A stretch of DNA of 64,000 bases from Octopus vulgaris (GCA_951406725.2 OX597815.1:126170001-126234000); one strand, 5' to 3'; positions 3,090 through 57,825 are shown, counted from the first letter of the stretch. Program-made: numbers and translations. Notes: generated from the letters alone by a model not told the origin.

Positions 3090-3510
3090 GTCAGCTTAAG
3101 AAATTCACATGTGTAGCCAACTATGAAGAACAAATCAAAGATACAGCCAAATAGAAGACCGATCCTGTTTAAATGCCAGCCAGTACCATCTACTACCATT
3201 CCTAGCAGCCCGACAAATACTCTCTCGCGGCAAACACCATGAGTCTATCAATCGCTACTAAATTCAAAACACGATAAACAAAGAAGATGGCCTTGATGTC
3301 GACGATTTTAAGCTAAAGGAGACAACTCTCGTATATTGCCTGAGGAAGCACAACTACATCCTATTATGCAAACAAGCATTTGTATAATCGAATACCTGTA
3401 TTCTTAGAGAACTACGTTGCATCGAAACAATTGTAGCGAATAATAAATAAATGTCCAACCGTACTCCATCTTCTTGAATCCAATCTCTTCAATTTTACAT
3501 TCATACACGA
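3090..3510 (+). mobile_element. Penelope-like element 3' remnant with hammerhead-ribozyme motif
   Basis: Degenerate reading ILSRGKHHESINRY*IQNTINKEDGLDVDDF resembles the C-terminus after the Penelope GIY-YIG domain; followed by CTGAGGA...GAAAC-AATT-GTA and AATAAA. Confidence 0.5.
3336..3439 (+). ncRNA. Putative type I hammerhead ribozyme with enlarged stem II
   Basis: Stem I ttgc/gcga, CTGAGGA at 3340, GAAA at 3424, palindromic stem III ACAATTGT, GUA cleavage triplet. Confidence 0.45.
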
Positions 3511-3513
3511 CGA

Positions 3514-5069
3514 ATGGCTAAACTTAAACTTGGAAGTATTAGATCGGTACCTCCAATGCATCGATTGGTCATCACGCGGGACGAAGTCAAACGTGTTATT
3601 CAAGGCCTCGATGTCAACAAGGGTCACGGCCCTGACGGCATACACCCACGGGTTATCAAAGCGTTGGCTCCGGTCATCTGCGAGCCCTTAACACGTCTAT
3701 TCAATATGTCATTGGCGACGGGTGTTATACCTGCGGACTGGAGAACAGCGATAATCTGCCCAATTTTCAAGAAAGGGAGCCGCGAAGACCCGCTTAACTA
3801 CCGACCGGTTTCCCTTACATCAATAATCAGCAAGATGTTCGAAACCATCCTTAAGAAAAGTATGATGCTCCACCTCCAAAACACAGCCTCTATCTCTGAT
3901 TCCCAACGCGGCTTCGTGCCGAAGAGATCATGCTTGACCAACTTACTGGTAATGGAAGAATTGGTGACGCGCATCCTCGATGATAGTGATGCTGTTGACA
4001 TCGTTTTATTGGACTTTGCCAAAGCTTTTGACTCGGTAAACCACCGCCTATTACTTGTCAAGCTTCAAGCATATAGTTTCCATCCGGATATTGTACGATG
4101 GGTTGGTGCCTTCCTCTCAGATCGCTCCTTCCAAGTCCAAGTTAATGGTTCGCGGTCCGACGTCTCCTGTGCGAGCAGTGGCGTGCCTCAAGGTTCAGTG
4201 CTTGGGCCCTTATTGTTCTTAGTCTTCATAAATGACTTGCCCGACGACCTCACGCAACACACCCTTCTATTTGCCGACGATATCAAACTGGTCGCTCCTC
4301 GCGGTGATATAGAGGATCTTCGTCGATGCCTCCACCAAATTTGGAAGTGGTCTAACGAATGGGACCTGTGTCTGAACGTGTCAAAGTGCTGTCATCTGCC
4401 TGTTGGCTCTCCTCCTGCAACTCAACTTGATTTCGAGCCGGGTCGTCTGCTGCTGGAGAGGACCGATCAGGTAAAGGACCTAGGTATCTTGGTGGATTCC
4501 TTCTTTTCGCCTTCGGCCCAGTGCGTCCATGCTGCCAACAAACACGCGGAATTCTGTTCTTGATTCGACGGTCATTCGGAATGCTCACAGCAGCCATATT
4601 CCTACCACTCTATGTCACGCTGGTGAGACTCATATTGGAGTACGGGATTCAAGCCTCTTCTCCTTATCTCCTCAAAGACATACAGCATCTCGAAAGAGTC
4701 CAGAAGCTGGCTACCCGCATGGTTCATGGTCTCAAAAATTTGTCCTATGAAGAAAGGCTGAGGACGCTCGACCTTTATTCTCTTGAAAAACGCCGCCGCC
4801 GTGGTGATCTCATTCTCGCCCACAACATCATAAGCGGAAAGTGTAACCTCTCGAAAGAGCTGTTCTTCACTCCTGCTCCAGAGCGTCGGCTGCGGGGTCA
4901 TTCCGAAAAGCTCTACCTGCGACGATTTCATCTCAATCGAAGGAGAGGAGCTTTCTCCGTCCGGGTTGCGGATCCGTGGAACAAGCTGCCAGACGAGATG
5001 GTGAAGATGCCGACGACCGCTTTGTTCGAAGCCTCCCTTGACCTCAAGTGGCCTGAACACTTTACATGA
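3514..5069 (+). pseudogene. CR1 ORF2 reverse transcriptase (partial, one frameshift near 4545)
   Basis: ORFs 3514-4563 and 4521-5069 join into a continuous RT plus C-terminal region. Confidence 0.9.
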
Positions 5070-6440: not shown

Positions 6441-8581
6441 AACTTGTAACATAAATATATGCATTCACTTTTATATATACTGAGGTGTACACTTTGTAAG
6501 CAAATTAAATCCATTCATTATCACCTTGAATTTTAAATACTTTCTATATTTGTCTTTCAGTATATTCTTAATGTTCTTTTTGTTTCTACTATCGTCCGAA
6601 AATCGAAAATGAGAAACACAGTATCGATTCGTGAGGTTTCAGCTTCATATCTAGTAATATATAAATTTACTACTCGGTTCTCCCACTTTTCTTTCTCGTT
6701 TACACATATTTGTATAATTATCTCTTCTTTTTGCTATTGAGTACTGTACAGAGAACGATAAATATAATCTGAAAACGGAAAAATAGCCGCTGAAGTTTTC
6801 GACAAAAATTATTTCTATTCCATTCTGAAGATACTGCTTGATTTTTTAATTAAATAATTTAAAGATTCCATAAGACTAAGAAGACATGCGTTTATTTTGG
6901 CGAATATTATATTCGAATACAAATCACGAATGAATTTCTAGTTTTTAGAGAATTACAGCAGTAGAAAAATATCTTGTAATCTCGCAAAGATAGTGAAATA
7001 CAAGAAGGTCTACAACTGCTTTCGAAGCTTCTTAAACAAGAGCTCAACTTTATATGATTCGAAAACAATGAAATCACGAAAATGTTATTTGCAATTATGT
7101 TCCATTCACAACAGCTACAGAGCAACACATACATAGCTACACCCATAGATACAACATGCACATACACGCCCACTAACTCACGCACACAGTTTCCTATGTA
7201 TATGTATACACACACACAAAAAGAACATATTATCATATATTGCGGCTCGGCTATAGAATATTATTCTGGAATCTTTTCCATACCACCCACTTTTGTCCAC
7301 TATTTATTCAACATGCAGCTTGCACTGCAACATTCTAACATTGTTTCCAAAGAACTTTCTTTTGTTTTTTCATCTTCACTTTTCCTAGACGAAGGGCCAC
7401 AATCCGAAAGGTACAACATTCCACTGGTTTTTCTCACAACATAAAATTAATTTCTTTGTAGTCCTGTTTGCTTTTGTTGTTTTGTTTCTGAAATCCTACC
7501 TATGTTGCATAGTATTCCTGATCCGATAGAATTTATAACCTTCGGGGATTTAGTTTCTAGTTGACGTATGCGCATTTTCGATGAGTCTACTTTTAATGCT
7601 GCTTCTCATTAATATATTCATCTTCTTCAACACATAGCATGTTCTAATATGTCAAGGTATTGAAAAGATCTATGTAAATATTATGAATCAATTCATCTTA
7701 TAGGTCCAATTTAAAGAGCAGCGCAGTTGAAAAAATTCTTAATCTAATCTCTTTTCATTCCCCAACGAGTCATAGATATAAAATCATTATAAGAAGCTCG
7801 TTTAAACTTAGCTGTTCTTGCTTCCTATATTAAACGTTTTATTCAAAAAGGCAGATCAGTTTAAAAATTAATGTTCCCCCGCCAAGTTATTACTTCATGA
7901 CCCAAACATGAATTATTTTCGAAGAAATTTTTTGGCTAAAGATATAGCGTATAACGTGAAAGTATAAATATGCCGTTTAGAACATAGAATGGCTTACCAG
8001 TAAATACATTTGAGATGCTTTTTTTATCTGCTTAAAAATGATTTCAGAAACCCGAAAAAAGTTCGCCATGATTTACCCAAGTATAACTGGTTTTCGAAAG
8101 GATCCTGCCCATTTCTGCTAAATTACACATGTCCATCTTAGAATATGTTAGTCCACACAATGGTTCGCTTCGATAAACAGCAAGATGTTCTTTGTGTTAA
8201 GTGAAAAGTTCCTCCTGTATGCTGGAAACTTTAAATCAGAAAATCATAAATATCGAATTTTTGCAGTGTTACTCGTGTTACCTGCTGTGTAATTATTTTT
8301 TTTATTGTCTAATGGCTGAAGTTTACTTTGCTGATTTTTTAAAATAGAGTGCATAACCACGAACTTCAATTAATTGTTTCAATTCTTTACTCTTTTACTC
8401 TTTTACATGTTTTAGTCATTTGATTGCGGCCATGCTGGAGCAAAACGACCCCAGGACTTATTCTTTGTAAGCCTGGTACTTATTCTGTCGGTCTATTTTT
8501 GCCGAACCGCTAAGTTACGGGGATATAAGCACACCAGCATCGGTTGTCAAGCGATGTTGGGAGGACAAACACACACACATA

Positions 8582-8966
8582 TCTCTCTCTATATAAACGG
8601 CAGTTTGTCTGTGTGTGTTTCTGTGTGTCTGTTTGCTTGTACCCTCACCCTGACCACGGCTTTCAACCGATTCTGATGAAACTTGACACACACATAGCCC
8701 AATGTCATAATTCAAAACTAACGCAGCGAAAATTTTGAAAAGTTCCCCCAGTTCTGAAAAAAATCGATAAATTCGACATGGGGTCGAGAATCAGAAACAC
8801 AAACCGCAAACTGTCTAGGGGACGCAACTCCACCTTTTTTTACTCTCAAACAAAATTTACCATCATTTTTTTTCCATTTTTTTGCTATTTTTTGGCTATA
8901 ACTCTCTAAAAATGCTTTATAGTTATTTCCCTTACAAACCTGAGCAACACCGGGCGATACTGCTAG
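8582..8966 (+). mobile_element. Non-autonomous Helitron (about 385 bp)
   Basis: 5' TC start, subterminal hairpin cctgagcaacaccggg, 3' CTAG, inserted between A and T with no TSD. Confidence 0.75.
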
Positions 8967-9129
8967 TATATATATATAAACATATATACGACAGTTTTCT
9001 TTCAGTTTCCGTCTACCAAATCCACTCATAAGGCTTTGGTCGGCCTGAGGCTATAGTAGAAGACACTTGCTCAAGGTGCCACGCAGTAGGACTGAACCTG
9101 GAACCATGTGGTTGGTAAGCAAACTACTT

Positions 9130-11394
9130 TATTTCAAAACTTTTGCCATAAAGGCATGATACAGAGTAGCTTGCGGGCTGGACAAAGACATTGATGAGGT
9201 GAATGATGACAAGGATGATATTAATGGGAGAAGACAAAAAACTCCCGCCGATTTTCTGCTTCTCTAAAACATTATTCTCTTATTTTTTCCCCAGAGAAAG
9301 ACAAAACGAGGTAATGAACCTCTTACTTCAGTATTACAATTTCTGGACTAATAGTCCATTTAAGAATTGGGGCGTTAAGCCTCTTAAACACAATAGCATG
9401 CAATAAACATTAAACATTATACAGTAAACATTATAACACTGAGCCTTTTCAACCTCTCGTCATTATTCCTCTCCAACATCGTTTGTGCCCGTATACTCCA
9501 CCATCACCCACGCCTCATTCAAAACCAAGGTGGTATCCGAGCCAGCGTCGCCCGGCCACAAGCGATATTCCTCATTGAGTCCCTGCAGCCTATAACCCAC
9601 AGACACCGTTATGACCTCCACAGCTACCTGCGGAGGCCATTCGGAATCTTGTGTGAAGGTTAAAGGTACTCTCTTATGGTGATTTTCCACCATCTCTTCT
9701 ACGTCTCCGCCTCTGTAGAAGAAGACCAATAGTTCCTCTTCCTCCGGGTTCGAGGTAGCCAATTCTACCGTTGGTGGCACAATTCCCCCAACGGTGTCTC
9801 TTTCCCTGCCAGTGGCACAACCCCTACCGGCAAGGTTCCGGGACATTCTGGTGCTATGTCACCGACTGCCGGCAATGTCCTGTTTCTCTTCCTCTTCCTC
9901 TTTTTTCCCTCTCAACTGAGGGAGGGTGCGTCTCCTCCGTGACCGGGAGATTCACCTCTCCTCCCTCATCCCCAGGATCCTTCGTGAGCACCCATTGTTG
10001 CTCTCCTTCCCTGAGCAGTCCTCTGTCTCCTCAGCCGCCTTCGTTCCCTCTTCTACAGAGGTCACAATTGACTACTCCAGGCCTTTGCTCTGTTCCTGAG
10101 GACAGTTTTTCTTTATATGGCCAGGCTCCAGGCACTGATGACACCTGGCGGGGACGACCCTCAAGAATCACTGGGTACCTGCACCCGGCCATTTTCAAAA
10201 AATCTGACGTAATTAGATTCATGGCTGATTGACCCATCCCAATCAGCCGCAGGAAGAATTTTCACGTCGAGGAACCTGGCTCCGCTGCCACACAGACCCC
10301 GACGGATAGTATCCTCTATCCACTGGGGTTCAAATTCCGGGTGACAAACCACAGACCCAGACACTCGTCAATTTTTTCCCGCAATAAGTGGGAAGAAACA
10401 AAATGTCTTTACTCTCAACGGGCTGGCTCGCAAAACTGCGAGCCTCCTCTGGGGTGTCAAACAGCAACCACACCGTTGCATGATTGATTCCCCTAGAGAT
10501 ATACTTAACGGTTGGCAGATGTTCCGCCAACTCCTGCTCAATCATCTGCTTGGAGAAGACGGTAATGGTGTCGAGAACCTTCGAATACGTTCTCAACACC
10601 ATCGTTCTCTCCTCTTGCTGTCTGAGCCGCTCCTTAGGTGGGACAACCACCCACTCTACAATCTTATCCGTATTTTCTTGCCATGTTTTAAAATAAAAAA
10701 TAAAAAAGCTCCAAAACAATAGTTCACAAAAAAAGGAAATAGAGAATTCAAAAGGAAGCAAAAAGGAAGAAGAAAGAAAAGCAAACAGTTCAATACAAAA
10801 AGTCTCAATAGAAGAAGAAAACAACAGTTAAAAAAAATACAGCAAAAAATATTCTGGGCATTCAGGTACTCCAAGCCCTATGGTACTCCAATTAGAACCT
10901 GAACTGATCCACTTGAAATACAGCTTTCCAACGTAGTTGTAAAATACAAACTATTTACAAACAGCGAACGACTTTTGGTGGCAGGATACGTCACCAAACT
11001 ATACTTCTCACAACGAGAAATAATTTTCCCTTCATGTGAACACTTAAAATACAGCTTTCCAATAATGGTTAATGTTGTTGCAAAAACATACACTGTTAAA
11101 AAGTGAACAACTTTTGGTTGAAGGATACACCCACCAAACTGTACTTCTCACAATGAGAAACAAATTTTCATTTACTATGAACCATATTGCTGAACCGCAA
11201 GTAGACCAGCATCCTGAATCCAGCGAGGATTCCCTGTTTGTAAAACATATAAGCACAGACAACGACCCTCACTGGGTCCAAGAGACAAAAGTCTTACCTT
11301 GCAGCAGCTTCTTTTGGCAGGCTAAGCACTGCCGGCTATCTTCTTCAGTGCACAACACAATGACACATGCGTACACTGACAACAGAGACTCATG
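9130..11394 (-). mobile_element. ORF1(gag)-only non-LTR retroelement (Tx1/L1-like ORF1), inserted in SINE head
   Basis: 16-bp TSD ggtaagcaa(a/g)ctactt at 9114-9129 and 11395-11410; CCHC knuckle CHQCLEPGHIKKNC; AATAAA at the 3' junction; no RT or endonuclease detected. Confidence 0.75.
9463..10684 (-). pseudogene. Gag-like ORF1 with CCHC zinc knuckle (frameshifted)
   Basis: ORF pieces 10330-10824, 10161-10364, 10031-10237 and 9463-9846 are collinear with the homologue at 47700-48507. Confidence 0.7.
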
Positions 11395-12237
11395 GGTAAG
11401 CAAGCTACTTACCACACAGCCACTCCTTCGCCTGCACTCTTTATTAATTGTTTTAATTCTTTATTGAAACGGCATGACTGAAACTTGTCATACTTTTCCA
11501 TTTTTTAAATTTTGATTGCCTCCCTTGCAACGTTTCAACACTATAATTTTAAACCGCACATTTCAGCATTTTTAACAAAAAAAAAATTTATGTATACCCA
11601 CCACGTCTGATTATAGACTTTTTTTGTAAGATATATTCAAGTGCTTCGTCATTCACTTGCAATATTTTTATCGCATACTTTTAACGTTTCAAGTATATTT
11701 CTTTATATTCTAAATGTGAGCATTTAAAGTAAGCTCCAATTGTTAATCGTGTTTCTTCTTTTTCCTTCTTCTTTACTTCGCTTTCCTTTTCATTCTCTTT
11801 AATTTCTACCTCTTCAGTTTTTTTTCTTTTTCTTCTACTCTCCGCTCACTTAGACTGCTTAGCTCTATATTTTCACATATATCTCCCCATTCTTTAGCTC
11901 TCTTGCCTCCATTTTTTCTCCTTTTATCTGTTTCTCTCTTTGAAATTGTAAAATTGCGCAAATAAAGTATCCTCTGACAGTTTTCTTCTTCAACGAGCTT
12001 TATAAAAATGTACAAAAATATGCAAACAAATATGGAATCTAAAATCAAATTTCACCCTTACATTTTATTTTCTGAAAAAACATACTTTAGAAAAAATATA
12101 CTCTACTGATTTCCATAATTACTTCAAATATATATTTTTTTCTCATCAGTATCTATTTATTTCAATGTTTATTGCCGTGTTTGTGGGCATCAAACTTTCT
12201 TATTTCTTCTGCGAGAAGCTAAAAAGAACAGATACCA

Positions 12238-19592: not shown

Positions 19593-19961
19593 GCAAAAAT
19601 GTTTTATTGAAATGAGTAAAACATTTTTTAAAATTTATGTGAATGATACAGAGATAAAAGTGAACTAAAATGATTCGATAAATTGCATTATATTCAATAA
19701 ATCTTTCTTTACTCTTTTTTGCATTTAAACAAAGATTATCTGAGCTTACTCACACTTCAGATTTTTAATTTACAAAGTTAGTTTTTTCGTTCATAATGCA
19801 TCCAAAAACAATTTCCTACATTTCTATGCATAAAGAAAACAATTTCCTATGTTACATACACACATTTATAAATAGGCAAGGTATATCAATATAGAATACA
19901 AATGGCCGTAATTGTTTCCACCACCAGCACCGCCACCACGAAAATCAACAACAGCAACCGC

Positions 19962-20012
<51 letters not shown>

Positions 20013-20454
20013 TGTGTGTACATAAGTGTGTGTTTGTGTGTTAGTGTGTGTATGTGCATGTGTGTGTGTGTATGTATTGACTTATTCTATCTTTTTCATC
20101 ATTACTAAAACAACGACCTTCAGTCTTAAGTATACATTATTCATTAATGATAAATATAATTTTGCTATGTAATCGAACACTTACATAAAGTACGACCAGC
20201 TCCCTGTAAACTAAATGAGTCCTCAATGCAAAATTTCAGTTACCTATTAAGCGTGTGGCCTACAATATAGAACATACCTTTTAACTTTTACACACGAACG
20301 CGCATGCTCGTACGCACACGCATACACACACACATTCACACACAAATATACACACACACACTCACGCTTGTGCATGCAAATACGCACATACACACAAAGA
20401 CACACGAACACACACATGTGCACTATATGTCAGATGTCGAAATGATAGGAGAGT

Positions 20455-28171: not shown

Positions 28172-28555
28172 TTTCTCTTTTACTCTTTTACTTGTTTCAG
28201 TCATTTGACTGCGGCCATGCTGGAGCACCGCCTTAAATCGAGCAACTCGACCCTGGGACTTATTCTTTTTGTAAGCCCAGTACTTATTCTATCGGTCTCT
28301 TTTGCCGAACCGCTAAGAAACGGGGACATAAACATACTAGTATCGGTGGTTAAGCAATGCGAGGGAGACAATCACAGACACATAAACACACACACGCATA
28401 TATATATACATATATACGACGGGCTTCTTTCAGTTTCCGTCTACCAAATCCACTCACAAGGCTTTGGTCGGCCCGAGGCTATAGCAGAAGACACTTGCCC
28501 AAGGTGCCACGCAGTGGGACTGAACCCGGAACCATGTGGCTGGTAAACAAGCTAC
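28172..28555 (-). mobile_element. Family B SINE, head truncated
   Basis: Matches 19128-19570; stops at ggtaaacaagctac. Confidence 0.85.
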
Positions 28556-28616
28556 ATAAATTTGATTTAAAATTGTTATATTGAATTTTTCCCTGTAAAT
28601 TTTGGAATTATATTCC

Positions 28617-28728
<112 letters not shown>

Positions 28729-28770: not shown

Positions 28771-28825
28771 TATTAGTTATTAATTATTAATAATAATAAT
28801 AGTTATAATTATTAATAATAATAAT

Positions 28826-30111
28826 AAAGAATATTATAGACGAGTTAGATCAATACTAAAAACAGAGCTCAATGCTAAAAACAAGATAATAAGTATCAAC
28901 ACTTTAGCTGTCCCAGTTATAAGTTACAGCTACAATATCCTTAACTGGACACGAAATGAACTGTCCAAAATAGATAGGAAAACAAGAAAAATACTGACAG
29001 GATCTAGGATGCATCACCCAAAATCTGACATAGAAAGACTATATATACAACGTATAGAAGGTGGTAGAGGCCTTATACAGCTGGAAAACTACTATAAAAT
29101 AACCACCATAGGACTGCAAAAATACCTACTTCAGAAGGAAGGAAAACTGATCCAGATAGCAGCAAAACACGAGCAAAACAAAAAACTGTTCTCAGTATTT
29201 AAGGAAGCTGACAAATACAAACAAGAAATCATACCACCTAATAAACACAAAGAAGAAGAAGAAGATGATCAAGAAACAACAAAAGCTATAAAACAAATGA
29301 AATCCAAACTAAAAATAGAACAGCAACGAGCCATGATAAAACGATGGCAAGAAAAGCCCCTTCATGGTAAATACTGCACTAAACTAAACGCAAAAGAAAT
29401 AGACAAAGAAAAATCCCAGCAATGGTTGAGAAGCTCAGGACTCAAAGCAGAAACAGAGGGATTTTTAATTGCAGCACAAGACCAAAGCCTCCCCACCAGA
29501 AATTACCAAAAACATGTAATGAAAAGAAATATTACAAGTAACTGCAGAATATGTGGAGATGGACAAGAAACAATAAATCATATTATCTCTAGCTGCCCAG
29601 TCTTGGCTAAGAAGGAATATATTCACAGACATGACAGAGTTGGAACCTACATACATTGGAAGCTATGCCAACATTATGGAATAACAACAGAAAAAAGATG
29701 GTATAGGCACACACCAGAAAAGGTCACAGAAAACGAGAAAGCAACCATACTCTGGGATATGCCGATACACACAGATAGAGAAATTAAGGCCAACAGACCA
29801 GATATAGTTGTCAGAGATCATGAAGAAAAAAATGCTTTCTAATTGATGTATCAATACCGGCAGATGACAACGTGTCTCTAAAAGAAATGGAGAAACTCTC
29901 AAAATACAAAGACCTGGAAATAGAGGTAACTAGAATGTGGAACCTGAAAACAGAAACAATTCCTATCATAGTAGGTGCATTAGGCATGATAAAAAAATAT
30001 TCAGACAAATACATAACAAAAACACCAGGACTTACAAACACATATAACATACAGAAAATTGCACTACTAGACACTGCACACATCCTACGCAGAACACTTT
30101 CCATACAATAA
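28826..30111 (+). pseudogene. Dong/R4 ORF C-terminus: RT thumb, CCHC, restriction-like endonuclease (frameshift near 29830)
   Basis: ORFs 29009-29842 and 29872-30111. Confidence 0.88.

Positions 30112-30205: not shown

Positions 30206-30210
<5 letters not shown>
28826..30210 (+). mobile_element. R4/Dong-clade non-LTR retrotransposon (RLE type), 5'-truncated, in (TAA)n
   Basis: KEYYRRVRSILKTELN, HPKSDIERLY..GGRGL, WLRSSGLKAETEGFLIAAQDQ, CRICG..ETINHIISSC, RHD, RPDIV..IDVSIP..KLSKY; TAA arrays on both sides. Confidence 0.92.
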
Positions 30211-30285
<75 letters not shown>

Positions 30286-31038
30286 TGATAATAATAAAAA
30301 TAGGGAATATAATTCCAAAATTTACAGGGAAAAATTCAATGTAACAATTTTAAATCAAATTTCACAATAGTAAATAGTAGTAAATACTACTATTTACTAC
30401 TTATTTTATAGTAAATATTATATATATATATATATATATATATTATATGGGCGACTAATTCGAAATTTTACAACCTAAAGACAGAAATATATACGTCACT
30501 AAAGATTAGTGCACCTAGTCACTTTAGCGACTAGGGGCAAAATATTTCATAAGCTCTGTTGTGACTCACCAGGCTAACAATATTATTTAGATCAGTGAAG
30601 GACATCCAGGTATTCTTATGGCAGTGTCCAAGGTTATGGTTCATCACAATTCTATATTTTAAATCCGTGGGTGGGCTCCAGACAAACTGGTTTTCATAAG
30701 AAACAAGTTTAAAATAATGGTCATTACATATTTTCCCTTTATAACAGCAATTTTGACTTACAACTGTTTCTGTGAGTGTTTCTGATTATCTTTTATCTTT
30801 TAATGTTTACATGTTTCAGTCATTGGACAGCGGCCAGGGTGGGTTTAGCTGAACATATCTATCTCAGGACTTATCTTCAAAAGTTTATTTTTCTTATAGG
30901 GTCTCTTTTTTCAGAATGTTATGATTGTTAGTGAGGTGGGTTTAACTAGATTTCCCCTCCCCTTCTAGATATAATGAACCACAATAATTTTCATTGACGA
31001 AGAATATTCCTCCACTATTACATACGTTTAACCTACCT

Positions 31039-34128: not shown

Positions 34129-34150
34129 TAATTCCCCCCCCCACATATTG

Positions 34151-35769
34151 CAGTTGCGGCCAAAATGTTCAGAACGGCATTGTTTTCGCCACAAAAGTAG
34201 GTATAAGTTTTTATCAAAGTTGTTTTATATTCTATAATTTTCACAGACAATAAATACAATATTACTTGTTATTGTCTGAGATTTTGGTGTAATTTGAGAG
34301 GATAATGCAAAAGTTATGGATGATTTAGTGATTTACTGCAAAACCCATGGCGGCCAAAATGATCAGAACGGTTGAAAAAATAACAAAATAATCAAAAATG
34401 ATAGAGAATACTGGAATTATGTAATATTTAGTGTGAAGCCCTTTAGCTTCAAACACACTTTGACATCTTCGACTGCATGAGGAAATTAAATTTTCAATTT
34501 CTTGCTAAGTGATCTTATTCCATTCTTCCTGAAGGGCATTCCATAATTGCTCGGTTGTTTTAGAATTTCTGGCTTTCGAACGTTCTCCTAGAATATTCCA
34601 CACATTTTCAATAGGATTGAGATCTGGGATTTGAGCAGGCCAATCCATAATAATAACCTTGAGAAAGTTCATGACCACCTTAGCCTTGTGACATGGGGCA
34701 TTGTCCTGCATGAATATGGGTGGTCGCTTAGTTGAATTTCTCAGCACAGGCAAGACATGATCTTTTACAAGTTGTTTATAAACTCCTGCATTTACCTTTC
34801 CATATAATCGCACCAAAGGGCCCACAACATCTCCAGATATCATCCCCCAAACCATGACACTTCCTCTACCGAATTTAACACTAGTTTTAAGGCATTTAGG
34901 CGACAATTTTTCACCTACTTTTCAACGAACGTACCTTCTCCTATCTGAGCCAAATAACATAAACTTAGATTCATCACTGAAATGCACCGTTTGCCATTTT
35001 TCTTGAGACCACAATACATGTTCGGTTGCAAAGCTAAGACGACACTTTTTATTTTTGGGGCTGATCAGTGGCTTCACTGCTGGTGATCTTGCTTGTAGGT
35101 TATGTTCAACTAAACGATGAGACAAGTTTTTCGAGATAACGTTTTCTTCAGTACAATGCTCATTTCCCGAGAAACAGCAGCAGCAGTTTTAAATCTGTCC
35201 TTTTTAACCAACTTTACCATAGCACGATCTTCTCTCTTGGTCGTTTTTCTTGGCCTATCTGTAGACTTTCTTGCTTCACACGAACCACAAACATCAAAGA
35301 CCTTAAGAATACCGTGAACAACACTTTTTGACTTGTTAACAATCTTTGCAATAGACCCAATACTTAAATTATCCTTCTTTCGAAGCTTAATAATCTGCTG
35401 ACGAATTGATAACGGAGTAAGTGGCATTATATTAACAAAGTACACTGCAGATATTCTTACTAATGTTTAGTAAACGAACCGTCACGTAAACAAATTCAAA
35501 ACATTAGAGTTCGCCGGTTAAATATACTAAAACATGGAGTAAAAGCAACCGTTCTGATCATTTTGGCCGCCATGGGTTTTGCAGTAAATCACTAAATCAT
35601 CCATAACTTTTGTATTATCCTCTCAAATTACACCAACATCTCAGACAATAACAATTAATATTGTATGTATTGTCTGTGAAAATTATAAAATATAAAACAA
35701 CTTTGATAAAAACTTATACTTACTTTTGTGGCGAAAACAATGCCGTTCTAAACATTTTGGCCGCAACTG
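34151..35769 (-). mobile_element. Full-length Tc1-like DNA transposon, IR/DR type
   Basis: 224-bp TIRs 34151-34374 and 35546-35769 starting CAGTTGCGGCC, internal DR gcggccaaaatg(t/a)tcagaacgg, TA on the right flank (TG on the left). Confidence 0.95.
34425..35427 (-). pseudogene. Tc1 transposase (DD34E family), disrupted
   Basis: HTH region, DRPRKTT, FSDESKF, SVMVWG, FMQDNAPCH, WPAQIPDLNPIENVW; frameshift at about 35120, stops at 34922 and 34505. Confidence 0.92.
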
Positions 35770-36100
35770 TAAATATATATATATATATATCTATATATAT
35801 ATATATATATACGCACACACATACTATATATAAATATATATTTATATATATAGGTTTGTTTTTATGTTCAGTTCTAATAAAAACAATTTTACATTAATCT
35901 AATGGATTACTCAATACTTTTGTAGAGTACAAATCTATTATTTTAATACAAGCTAAGCCAGCGTTGGACGATAGAAGGACAAATCCGTATTTACCTTTGT
36001 AAGTACGTGTATGTCAGCATATATTGTCGGTTCATATTCCCGACTGTACCTTGGTGATTTTACTATTCAAATACCTGATTCTTTCGAATCCTGAAAATTG

Positions 36101-40007: not shown

Positions 40008-41283
40008 TATTAATATTTGTTCTTGATTCTGAATTGTGCATGTTTATCTTTAAATTCAGAGGCACATACCTCGGCTCAAACAAAACTTTATTAATAGAAA
40101 TAAACACCACCAGAATCAACACAATTTTGCCAACGCGAAACAAATTTATTTATGCCAGTAGCGTAAAAATTCTGCGCTCTGGTGGCGATGAAGTCGTTGA
40201 AGGCGTCTTTTGGCATCGTCTTGGTTTTTGAAGCATTTCTCACGCAGGAAGTTGTCGAGATGCTTGAAAAAATAGTAGTCGGCAGGCAAGTGGTCTGGTG
40301 AGTATGGCGGATGAGGCAGAGTTTCGTAGCCCAATTCGTTCAACTTCTGCAGGGCCAGTTGTGCGACTTGCGACCGAGCGTTGTCGTGGAGAAGAACTCG
40401 TCCTTTTCTATTGACCAATGCTGGCTGTTGTCGGAGTTTTTTATGCATTTCATCCATTTGCCGACAGTACTTCTCCGCCGTAATGGCTTCGCCTGGATCC
40501 AAAAAGCTGTGATGGATGAGACCGTCCGCAGACCACCAAACAGTAGCATGACCTTCTTTTGGTGCAATTTTGGCTTCAGGAAGTGTCGTGGAGCTTCATC
40601 AGCGTCCAACCATTGAGCTGAATGTCGCCGGTTGTCATAAAGAATCCACTTTTCATCGCAAGTCACAATCCGGTCGAAAAACGGATCGTTCTTGTAACGT
40701 AAAAGCCAACACTTCAAAACGGCATTTTTTGGTGGGGTGGGGGTGTCGTTCAATTCGTGCAGCACCCATTTCTCAAGAATCTTTGTTTTTCCAATCTCTT
40801 TCAAGTGGTTGGAAATTGTTGTATACGTTACATCTAATTCAGAAGCAATCTCTCGAACAGTTGTGCGTGGATTGATTCGACTAAGGCTCTTAGTTGATCG
40901 TTGAAGATGGCCAACCACTACACTTATCATCTTCAAAACTCTCGTCACCGCTACAAAATTTCTTGAACCACCATTGTGCTGTACGTTCATTAGTGGTTCC
41001 TGGGCCAAACCCATCGTTGATATCACGAGCTGTTTCAGCAGCTTTTCGGCCTTGTTTGAACTGGAATAAGAAAATTGTACGATTTTGCTTTTTGTCCATG
41101 TTGTAGTCAATGTTCCGGAAAAAATGACCTAATTATTAAAAAAAAAAAGAGTGGCACGATTAAATAGAGCGAAAAACGGGCTTTAAAATGATATATAAAA
41201 TCAAAGTAATTTAACGAAAATTAATTTGAAAATACATCATTTAAAACCAAACTCTAAAATTTCGCAAGAACTTTCTTGACAAC

Positions 41284-45806: not shown

Positions 45807-45968
45807 TGGCGCAGGAGTGGTTGTATGGTAAGTAGCTTGCTTACCAACCACATGGTTCCAGGTTCAGTCCCAGTGCGTGGAACTTTGGGCAAGTGTCTTC
45901 TGCTAAAGCCGCGGGCCAACAAAAGCCTCTGAGTAGATTTGGCAGACGGAAACTGAAAGAAACCAATC

Positions 45969-46633: not shown

Positions 46634-47039
46634 TTTGTGTGTGTGTGTGTGTGTCTGTGTGTCTGTGTGTGTGTGTCTGTGTGTGTGTATGTGTGTCTGT
46701 GTGTGTGAGCGTGTGTGTGTGTGTATTATCTTTTACTTATTTCAACCATATTAGACTATAGCTATGCTGAGGCATTGCCTTGAACGGTTTTAGTCGAACA
46801 AATCGACCTCAGAACTTGTGTTTATAAGCTAGGTTTTTCATCTATGCGTCTCTTTTTTGCCGAACTGCTAAGTTACGAGATGTGAGCAGACCAATACTGT
46901 TTGCCAAGCGGTGGCGAAATACAAAGACAAAGCAAAGACACACACACATAGATATATACATAGATGTACACATACATTTACATGCATATATACATATACA
47001 TGTATATATATACATATACATGTATATATATGTATATAT

Positions 47040-47117
<78 letters not shown>

Positions 47118-47122
<5 letters not shown>

Positions 47123-47338
47123 TAATCCAAACATGAAAACAAAAAGAGAAAACACAACAACGCGAGGACGTGGAACAAGTATAGTATTATTCGACGCTCA
47201 GGAAAGGAAAGAAAGAAGGAGTATTTAACGTTTTGAGCGGAGCTCTTCGTCAGAAACATAGGAAAACGAAAGATCCAAGGAAGGGAAGACGGAGGAAAAA
47301 AATCGCCAACGGTACACACGCGGTCACATTTTGAGTGT
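47118..47338 (-). mobile_element. Penelope-like terminal fragment in (TA)n with hammerhead motif
   Basis: Minus strand CTGACGA-a-gagc-tcc-gctc-AAAAcgtt..agcgTC. Confidence 0.55.
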
Positions 47339-47399: not shown

Positions 47400-47556
47400 T
47401 GCACTCACGTAAATGTATACGGCGGGCTTCTTTTCGGTTTCTGTCTATCAAATCCACTCATAAGGATCTGGTCGACCTGGTGCTATAGTAGACGACACTT
47501 GCCCAAAGTGCCTTCAGTAGGACTCAACCTGGAACAATGTGGAAGAAAGCAAACTA

Positions 47557-49110
47557 TCATTCTTCCCTTCCTTCTCCTTCCGGACGCCCAGTCAAATATC
47601 TAGCCGCCTGCAGAGCAGACCGCGTTGACAGGCGGGAGTTCAGAAAGAAGAAGGCGAAGTAACTTTTATTCAATGTTTGTGTCACGCAGTGTCACAATTT
47701 ATAACACCCGTTCTCGGTCGCCCAAGCCGCCCAAGTATTCATCGACACCCCCACCCCCTGAGATAAAGGAGGATAAAATCCTCTTCCTCTCCGGGGGGGG
47801 GGAGGGGTCTCTGTCTGCTCTGTCAGTGGCACAACTTCCACTGTCTCCCCCGCCACCTTACTTTCCTGTGCCGGGGCCATGTTACGGCTCCGGGGGCAAT
47901 CCTTCTTAATGTGGCCTCGCTCCAGGAACGAGTGACACTCGTGAGTGGGGGATGACCCTCAAGTATCACTGGATACCTGCAGCCAGCCATTTTTAGGAAG
48001 TCCGGGAATACCATTTCGCCTGCGGCCGAAGGTGAAAATTGCTTTTGATCCCTCCCAGTCGACCGCTGGCGTCCTTCTCACATTTAAGAGCCTGGGCCCG
48101 CTATCCCACAAGCCTTGCCGGATGGTATCACCAATCCATCCTGCTTCTGTGCCCGGGGGTAATCCACATACCCAGGATTTTATCACCTTCCTCCCACAAT
48201 AAGTGGGGAGGAACAAAATTTCTTGCCCCTTAAGGGGCTCGCTGGCAATTGTGCCAGCTTCCTCGAGGGTAGCAAACAGTAACCAGACCGTTGCAAATTT
48301 GGTCCCCCGTGAAATAAATTTTATAGTTGGCAGGTTGTCTGCCAACTCTTTCTCTATCGCAATCTTGTCGAAGAGGGCGATAGCACCTCGCGACCTAGAA
48401 TAGGTCCGTAGTACCACCGTCCTCTTCTCAAGATCTTTAATCCACTGTTTGAGAGGGACCACCTTCCCCTCCAAAGCAGCGGCACCGTTTATTTTTGCCA
48501 TGTGCAAAAAAAGTCTTAAAAGTTAAAAGAAAATTTCAAATGTCTAAGAAAAAGTCAAAAAAATGTACACAAAAAGTTAACAAAAACAGTAAAAAAAAAC
48601 AATGAAAGTCCAATAAATAAACAGTTCAAAACGAAAGAAAAAATCAGGAAAGATAGACGGAAAAAAGAAGAACAATTCACACAGCAAAAATTCAATTTCC
48701 TGGCCAAATGTGGATATGGTCCTTGGTATGATTCTTTTTTTTCCGGTAATTGGTAAAATAAATCCAATAAATCCAAACACAACACTGGCTACAGCAATCG
48801 GTAACTGCAACAGTAACTGTAATAGGTTCTAATCATTCGGGCGAGGATATGCACCCCCCCTTTTTTTTTCACAATAAATTCACAATATACAGAAACAGCA
48901 GCCGCCGAGAGCAGCCGAAATTGTCCCAGAGCTGGGCGAAATTTATTAACAAAATATTACAATATAATAAATTACGCTCAGCTCAGATAAATCAAAATCA
49001 CCTACCTCGAAGATCTCTGTTTTTGTTCTTTTTTCTTGTAATTGGACGGAGCTAACAAGCCTACGTCCACTCTGGTTCAGGTTGAAGAAGTTGACTAACT
49101 GCCTATGTGC
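47557..49110 (-). mobile_element. Second ORF1(gag)-only retroelement, divergent homologue of 9130-11394
   Basis: RTVVLRTYS..LPTIKFISRG..ATVWLLF..ILFLPTYCG..WVCGL..DFLKMAGCRYPVILEG..CHSFLERGHIKKDC; degenerate TSD gaaagcaaacta / ggaagcaagctt. Confidence 0.72.
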
Positions 49111-49184
49111 GGAAGCAAGCTTCTTACCACACACATACATCCGCGCGCCCGCATGCACGCATGCACGCACATACATACATACAT

Positions 49185-57163: not shown

Positions 57164-57825
57164 AACACACACACACATACACACACACATACATATATAT
57201 GTATATACACAGAGGGGTGGGAAATGTGTGTGAGTGTGTGACTGAGAAGGAGAGGAAGAGAGACAGACAGACAGTAAGCTCATTTTTGAAATTAATTATG
57301 TAAATCATCATAGGCCATAGATGTTCTCTACTGCTTTTGTATATGTCTAATGCATACATCTGCTAAAGGGCCACAGCTGTGCCGACGACATCTATTGAGA
57401 CAGAAACACGTGCTGCATTAGTCCACTTCACTCCAGGAACAAAAAATTTAAAAAAATTATCTTTTATATATTAATCTGCCGAGAATTCTTGTTTCTTGAA
57501 ATTATCTCTCCTACACTTTCGGCGTCATCGCAATTTACACAAGGCGTTTGTTTACTATCTCTCTGAGAGACGATCATCATATAAATCAAGAATTTATCTT
57601 GTATTATAGTTAATATACCATTATTGTCCATGCCCACATTCAAGCCATTGACTACACAGAATAAATTTGTCTTAAGCTAGCTGGCGGAATCGTTCGCTAA
57701 TCAAATAAAATGTTTATCAGAATTTCTTCCAGCTTTACGTTCTGACTTTAAATGCCGCTGACTTTGCCTTTTATTCATTCAGGGTCGATAGAATAAGAAT
57801 TATTAAAGGTGCTGGTGTGGCTGTG

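Follow-up and report, generated by a model that had tools for sequence, protein, structure and literature searches.

A decayed ORF1-only element, probably LINE-derived, and a diverged relative in the same site of an octopus SINE head

In a 64,000-nt stretch of the Octopus vulgaris genome (OX597815.1:126170001–126234000, the window), the head of a SINE is split by a 2265-bp insert at 9130–11394 on the minus strand. The reading we favor, at a probability of about 0.62, is that of a decayed ORF1-only LINE derivative, multi-copy in its genome and mobilized in trans by a partner of L1/Tx1 type that prefers one site in the SINE head. A preference for this site had been put forward by the first-pass annotation, and it is supported by a diverged relative that inserted independently at this position, which brings the loci with both flanks read to n = 2.

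The first insertion lies between the two promoter-like motifs of its host SINE (host 1). The 5′ part of the head (11411–11436, minus strand, as all features below), placed by sequence match and motif position, contains an A-box-like motif at 11412–11422 and borders the upstream copy of a target-site duplication (11395–11410). The downstream copy (9114–9129) borders the SINE body (8983–9113), with a B-box-like motif at 9089–9098, and the 3′ tail of the same SINE (8384–8581) follows past its internal microsatellite and an unrelated insert; body and tail were both assigned by sequence match. Repeat comparison gives a duplication of 16 bp, identical at 15 of 16 positions. The head together with the duplication matches the intact SINE head at 19597 over 42 nt (95%), and when the insert is removed, head and body rejoin as a normal SINE copy. 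Within the insert, a 5′ UTR of 710 bp (10685–11394), T-rich ahead of the ATG and containing a tandem duplication of ~131–140 bp at 10905–11182, leads into a decayed ORF1 of ~400 codons (9463–10684), delimited by alignment to a related protein, P0001, with its ATG at 10684 and its last stop at 9463–9465. The 3′ UTR of 333 bp (9130–9462) ends in AATA, and the 3′ junction carries no poly(A) tail. The placement between the boxes, the 16-bp duplication with one mismatch, the orientation shared by insert and SINE, and UTRs of roughly 700 and 330 bp, all described in the first-pass annotation, are borne out by these measurements. The AATAAA that it noted at the junction is present at 9128–9133, overlapping the duplication, and takes its final two A's from the target sequence.

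Comparison of the two ends of the insert as direct and as inverted repeats gave scores within the range of 200 shuffles, leaving no LTR or TIR to be recognized. The 16-bp target duplication and the lack of LTRs and TIRs agree with a LINE-derived non-LTR retroelement, in which the length of the duplication varies. Only 333 bp separate the ORF1 stop from the junction, and no reverse transcriptase (RT) or endonuclease family matched at E 0.1 in nine frames (six of copy 1 and three of copy 2, the second insertion), in agreement with the first-pass annotation, which saw no room for either enzyme. From the ATG at 10684, ORF1 aligns with Octopus sinensis XP_029652367 (P0001, 281 aa) at 63% identity over 261 aligned codons. 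The first-pass annotation had described one frameshifted ORF; frameshifted it is, and the decay is heavier, with at least six frameshifts and one stop over the 280 codons aligned to this closest relative, from which we judge this ORF1 copy to be dead.

The protein family was assembled by a search with the open part of the copy 2 ORF1 against 1.84 billion representatives; it returned 25 hits, P0001 being the best. All named relatives looked up among them are Octopus proteins, and these octopus relatives are diverse, mostly singletons and often fragmentary. Two spurious hits among the 25, the bacterial repeat proteins P0006 and P0010, were excluded from alignment A1. An AlphaFold model of P0001 built on a 25-row alignment contains two beta-alpha domains with pLDDT mostly near 90. 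Foldseek with this model returned tandem-RRM proteins in all top rows (E about 1e-4), and VIA-align assigned RRM folds to residues 14–101 and 102–184, its best match being the La RRM (Z 8.8, rmsd 2.6, 81 aligned) in a comparison where middling Z values are common. The two RRM-like domains, predicted on the relative P0001 and not on the broken insert 1 copy, map approximately to 10155–10645. They are followed by a CX2CX4HX4C zinc knuckle at 10102–10143 (Pfam zf-CCHC, E 1.5e-4, above the cut-off), already noted in the frameshifted ORF by the first-pass annotation. ESM Atlas placed ORF1 with unnamed eukaryotic clusters only (0.91) and an RRM-bearing cluster (0.88). The predicted architecture of ORF1 is thus two RRMs and then a CCHC knuckle, and RRMs directly upstream of such a knuckle define the type-I ORF1 of LINEs (PMC4120745). 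As such, with RRMs ahead of the knuckle and no LTRs, the frame is read as a LINE type-I ORF1 and not as Gag, the label under which it was first described. A retroviral or LTR-element Gag was rejected on the same two counts, the region before the knuckle being modeled as RRMs; Gag entries of the PDB match little beyond the knuckle, at E 0.004 or weaker. HAL1 proper was likewise rejected, with no Transposase_22 Pfam match in the window pieces or the 25 search hits and an architecture of type I.

The closest protein, XP_029652367, belongs to RefSeq as a gene model; it has three accessions and reads through the knuckle without a break. This would suit an origin of the inserts by retrocopying of a domesticated host gene with the RRM-RRM-knuckle architecture. 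We regard this origin as extremely improbable in view of the many diverged copies, the diversity and fragmentary state of the octopus relatives, and an architecture that is typical of LINE ORF1 (PMC4120745).

The host SINE family is ~470 bp long and is represented by roughly ten copies in the window, where the target-site pattern has 8 matches against 0.17 expected. In the copies at 45808 and 55886, which are uninterrupted, 32 nt separate the A- and B-box-like motifs, the spacing found in tRNA. Each box matches its consensus at 9/11 positions in these two of the five intact copies scanned; the best box matches of the other three, which are damaged, fall at other spacings. A further SINE-head match at 20380 proved to be a microsatellite artefact. 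Of the "tRNA-like head" proposed at first, the box geometry is borne out; ARAGORN found no tRNA gene in the window and Rfam no tRNA match in two intact SINE heads, so that "tRNA-like" describes the geometry of the boxes. tRNA-derived SINEs of octopus have long been known (PMC9223172; PMC8967140). The SINE-head pattern had 0 matches in viral contigs and 0 in metagenome contigs.

A profile of the ORF1 family run over the 64-kb window gives exactly two strong hits, both in this SINE site. The second, at 47560–49110, is a diverged ORF1-only element of ~1.55 kb with junctions placed to ~3 nt by profile and sequence; it lies in an older SINE copy and had gone unnoticed in the first-pass annotation. 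Copy 2 has its ATG at 48501, is open to 47962 and has a decayed knuckle near 47940. Its host (host 2) comprises a head (49111–49153) that runs up to the same target site, its last 15 nt being the target copy, an eroded second target copy with the body (47416–47559), and a 3′ tail (46725–46950), each assigned by sequence match. The downstream target copy is eroded, matching the upstream one at 9 of 15 letters, but the junction there falls within ~3 nt. The upstream junction of copy 2 falls 15–16 nt into the target stretch used also by insert 1 and agrees with the upstream junction of insert 1 within 1 nt, and the orientation relative to the SINE is the same at both loci. The tail of host 2 contains an 8–9-nt block also present in the old SINE copies at 57802 and 56362. 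Host 1 has a 17-nt deletion of its own where the 9-nt block of the old subfamily would be, and the lack of the block in host 1 was for this reason discarded as an argument for independence.

Over 459 bp, the ORF1s of copy 2 and insert 1 share 67% nucleotide identity, and across 108 codons dN is 0.28 and dS 1.55 (ratio 0.18, Fisher p 8e-11); the two have diverged under purifying selection. Host 1 shares 91% identity with an uninterrupted SINE and 76% with host 2, and a single clade of hosts 1 and 2 is rejected by an AU test (p 0.018); a maximum-likelihood tree of nine host SINEs has no supported branch. The 76% likeness of the hosts and the rejection of a single clade together argue for two separate insertions. 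A single old insertion could instead have spread as a composite of SINE head, ORF1 and SINE tail, or by local duplication, as the 38 kb between the loci and five changes shared by the host bodies (three of them non-CpG, against 0.93 expected) might suggest. We hold such a history to be very improbable: besides the host comparison, it is opposed by an ORF1 dS of 1.55 accumulated under purifying selection between hosts that are 76% alike, and by 3′ UTRs that cannot be aligned (the score is equalled or exceeded in 64 of 200 shuffles) though the host bodies can. The AATAAA of copy 2 lies ~105 nt upstream of its junction.

With the two insertions taken as separate, the coincidence of their positions can be weighed. 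Given the first, the chance of a second insertion within 2 nt of any of the 8 sites and on the same strand is 3e-4 if insertion is random, and 5e-3 if only T^AAR sites of relaxed L1 type are counted (8/1489 sites). L1 endonuclease prefers a relaxed pyrimidine/purine step. The observed nick site fits that step, and with n = 2 a relaxed L1-type endonuclease acting at any T|A step, without sequence specificity, could have met the SINE head merely as a frequent or accessible place; the unaligned ends of several contig pieces, described below, could be non-SINE flanks of the kind this expects. The low probability of the second hit even under the relaxed motif, the shared orientation and the agreement of the upstream junctions within 1 nt make this account unlikely.

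A related question is whether the SINE is the true target or a stand-in for it. The real target might be a family of tRNA genes or an ancestral sequence resembling tRNA, with SINE heads hit for their likeness to it. The inferred cuts do fall at tRNA-like positions, just past the A box and, by box geometry, at about the anticodon loop; the preference is common to two ORF1 lineages that are far more diverged (dS 1.55) than the SINE copies; and other elements are known to target tRNA genes (PMC3706591, PMC8869645). Against these points, a SINE is the host at each of the two insertions known, the SINE head is too diverged to score as a tRNA, and usable SINE sites are very dense, with ~8 in 64 kb. 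We therefore give the tRNA-target account a low probability and keep the SINE-head site as the preferred target.

The insert belongs to a larger population of sequences. Contigs from 4 of 24 public runs aligned to 9080–11500, covering 30 of 30 bins in all four runs, mostly with tens of distinct contigs per listed place; insert 1 is therefore a member of a multi-copy family, with the proviso that summed contig depth is not a copy number. The pieces listed individually are the longest 32 of more than 200,000, a choice that favors pieces fitting throughout. Among these 32, eight cross from the ORF1 stop into the insert 1 3′ UTR with at least 31 letters on each side. These eight differ from insert 1 at 11–13% of letters, come from all four runs and include three that overlap within run X2. 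The shared join indicates that the form without ORF2 has itself been copied, and together with the lack of RT and endonuclease matches it upholds the description of the element as non-autonomous and ORF1-encoding in the first-pass annotation. The listed pieces tile all of insert 1 except 10203–10214, within ORF1.

These joins also bear on the possibility that targeting is real and that the copies lacking ORF2 are dead-end deletions of a two-ORF LINE, with no ORF1-only lineage behind them. The two copies differ in length and have unrelated 3′ ends, as separate deletions would; loose ends outside those listed could contain ORF2 junctions; and L1-Tx1 elements are common in O. vulgaris (PMC13282606). 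This explanation is nevertheless quite improbable, since at least three contigs within one run, and pieces in four of four runs, share the ORF1-to-3′ UTR join at 11–13% divergence, and the one gap in the tiling of insert 1 lies inside ORF1. Loose ends are where an ORF2-bearing form would show, and among the matches listed they belong mostly to SINE-only contigs.

The same contigs bear on the decay of this copy. The in-frame stop near 10073 is missing from ~95% of depth, and for four of the six frameshifts other copies have one-letter indels in the same place or close by (3–68% of depth). At least some of the breaks are thus private to the insert 1 copy. In run X8, record 25 continues from the 3′ UTR into 40 letters of SINE body and differs at 32 of 234 letters; it may represent another insertion or the orthologous locus. 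Among the listed pieces, unaligned ends are present in X3 record 19 (262 letters), X8 record 25 (95) and X1 record 1 (71), which could be copies with other flanks. Metagenome contigs gave 232 pattern matches, 0 of which were confirmed as ORF1.

The partner that the preferred reading calls for was sought among database proteins. No ORF1–ORF2 fusion or partner appeared among 1563 longer candidates, and a search of 684 candidates returned P0001 itself only; both are weak negatives. Candidate partners exist in O. vulgaris: 13 L1-Tx1 families with recent activity, comprising 421 insertions over 2.29 Mb (PMC13282606, Table 1), and 80 L1-Tx1 consensus families (PMC13282606, supplement). Type-I ORF1 in non-mammalian animals has been called consistent with Tx1 (PMC5203782) and is also found in the I, Jockey, R1, Tad1 and L2 clades (PMC4120745). 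Tx1 membership is accordingly not established by a type-I ORF1, which several clades have in common, in an element that has no RT.

The likely course of insertion can be outlined from the duplication and from known target-primed reverse transcription, on which the nick and cut positions below are based. The partner endonuclease would favor a single position in the head of the SINE that is most abundant in octopus. There, one base beyond the A box, ORF2p of the partner would nick the bottom strand at T|A, a pyrimidine/purine step. The RNA of the element, ending in A, would pair with the exposed T's and then be reverse-transcribed, and a second, top-strand cut 16 nt downstream would yield the duplication. 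ORF1p may have been retained as a chaperone of the element's own RNA, as has been proposed for HAL1 and HeT-A. By parting the A and B boxes by kilobases, the insertion would end Pol III transcription of the host SINE. Read-in from a reconstituted Pol III promoter finds no support, since neither insert has a B-box-like motif above 8/11 in its first 150 nt. Because the SINE is so abundant, the cost to the host of one silenced copy is proposed to be low, and in that sense the SINE could serve as a "safe harbour".

Each part of this arrangement has a counterpart in known systems. Tx1-clade LINEs that target transposons include Tx1L in Tx1D of Xenopus and Tx1-Mar, Tx1-8_Crp, Tx1-4_AMi and Tx1-9_AMi of crocodilians (PMC4494074). 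Like the octopus element, these occupy a fixed position inside an abundant repeat with a target duplication; they differ in encoding RT and in having piggyBac, Mariner, Harbinger or LTR targets (PMC4494074), whereas the octopus element has a SINE-head target, no ORF2 and an unproven clade. In that work, families are classed as target-specific where more than 20% of flanks are of one sequence type (PMC4494074); within the window, both loci (2/2) have their flanks at this SINE site. SINEU-3, paired with Tx1-Mar, is likewise non-autonomous and takes its target preference from a Tx1 partner, but it encodes no protein and targets Mariner (PMC4494074). Dewa, Keno, Mutsu and Dada resemble the octopus element in occupying fixed positions within or beside multicopy small-RNA sequences, namely the tRNA-Leu spacer for Dewa, U2 for Keno, 5S for Mutsu, and tRNA genes for Dada, a DNA transposon that inserts in the A box or anticodon region with 6–7-bp duplications (PMC3706591, PMC8869645).

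Of the ORF1-only elements, HAL1 (half-L1) of mammals is similarly a non-autonomous LINE derivative encoding only ORF1p, and no fixed target is mentioned for it in the passage cited here (PMC5753468). It derives from L1 and has a type-II ORF1 (coiled coil, RRM, CTD), in contrast to the type-I ORF1, mollusc host and shared site of the octopus element. HeT-A and other ORF1-only telomeric elements of Drosophila also need the ORF2 of another family and have a confined target, but belong to the Jockey clade, reside at chromosome ends and serve the host (bioRxiv 10.1101/2025.06.09.658640). The octopus element is instead interstitial, within a SINE and flanked by a 16-bp duplication. ORF1-only telomeric lineages of Drosophila can spawn new ones (bioRxiv 10.1101/2025.06.09.658640). 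Literature searches turned up no ORF1-only or SINE-targeting element in octopus, although Repbase or Dfam may contain a curated entry, and the available text of a gastropod LINE survey contains nothing on SINE-targeting ORF1-only elements (PMC11203168).

What the octopus loci present is not a new principle. Two known habits, that of the transposon-targeting LINE and that of the ORF1-only form, are combined anew on a SINE head; particular to them are the ORF1-only form and the presence of two deeply diverged lineages at one site. A bolder reading, possible but with the odds against it, is that these are remnants of an old, diversified octopus lineage of ORF1-only elements that has done without its own ORF2 through several family births, specialized on the Pol III promoter of the dominant SINE and tracking its successive subfamilies; a protein-coding parasite of LINEs would then be landing in, and silencing, another LINE parasite. 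Should genome-wide flanks agree, the SINE promoter would join the fixed targets of LINE endonucleases, and an ORF1-only, target-confined lineage would be placed outside mammals and fly telomeres. One system would then allow two questions to be tested, namely why some non-autonomous LINE derivatives retain ORF1 and whether an element can keep its target as the targeted repeat is replaced over time. For octopus repeat annotation, nested copies of this kind would be split into calls of unrelated SINEs and an "uncharacterized gene", the label that the closest protein, XP_029652367, carries.

The ORF1 of insert 1 ends in an open C-terminal segment (9463–9858), identified by its open frame. Its structure model has a pLDDT of 42 and is unusable, ESM Atlas returned nothing for it, and 147 candidates yielded neither relatives of the segment nor, as a weak negative, a partner. 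A short acidic-hydrophobic motif of this segment is seen again in copy 2.

The C-terminal segment of ORF1 in copy 1, the decayed ORF1-only LINE derivative that splits the first host SINE, is open over 131 codons (9463–9858), and neither relatives nor a fold were found for it. The closest protein relative of this ORF1, from Octopus sinensis, stops short of the segment; a short motif matching it is retained in copy 2, the diverged ORF1-only element that occupies the same site in the second host SINE. The O. sinensis relative is a RefSeq gene model carrying three accessions (XP_029652367-9), is unbroken through the knuckle, and may represent a younger or transcribed copy. The 5′ UTR of copy 1 carries a tandem duplication (10905–11182) with units of 131–140 bp that are 74% alike, each containing a short inverted repeat, an arrangement that evokes the monomers of L1 5′ UTRs.

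In copy 2, an AATAAA motif at ~47664–47669 is followed by a stretch faintly resembling the target, the 16-bp sequence of the SINE head that is duplicated around copy 1, with ~105 nt further separating this target-like stretch from the resumption of the SINE. This end region (47558–47670) could be a tandem second insertion, truncated, at the duplicated site. Near the 5′ end of copy 2, 27 nt (49059–49085) are 74% complementary to the SINE body directly past the 3′ junction (47524–47550), which may reflect chance or a template switch; the same repeat listing contains no comparable end-to-SINE complementary repeat for copy 1. The internal microsatellites of the two host SINEs each hold an additional, different insert, at 8582–8966 in the first and at 47031–47338 in the second.

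A third SINE copy (28411–28558) lacks its head and is broken off at an almost identical target position. Adjoining it is an inverted repeat (28558–28711 and 30209–30362) that encloses a LINE RT-type fragment with an open frame at 28784–29839 and (TAA)n runs at its bounds, with a resemblance to Dong/R4. Elsewhere in the window lie what we take to be a LINE fragment with RT (3478–5066) and a mariner-like transposase fragment (40343–41128), as well as a young inverted-repeat pair of 227 bp at 96% (34148–34374 and 35546–35772).
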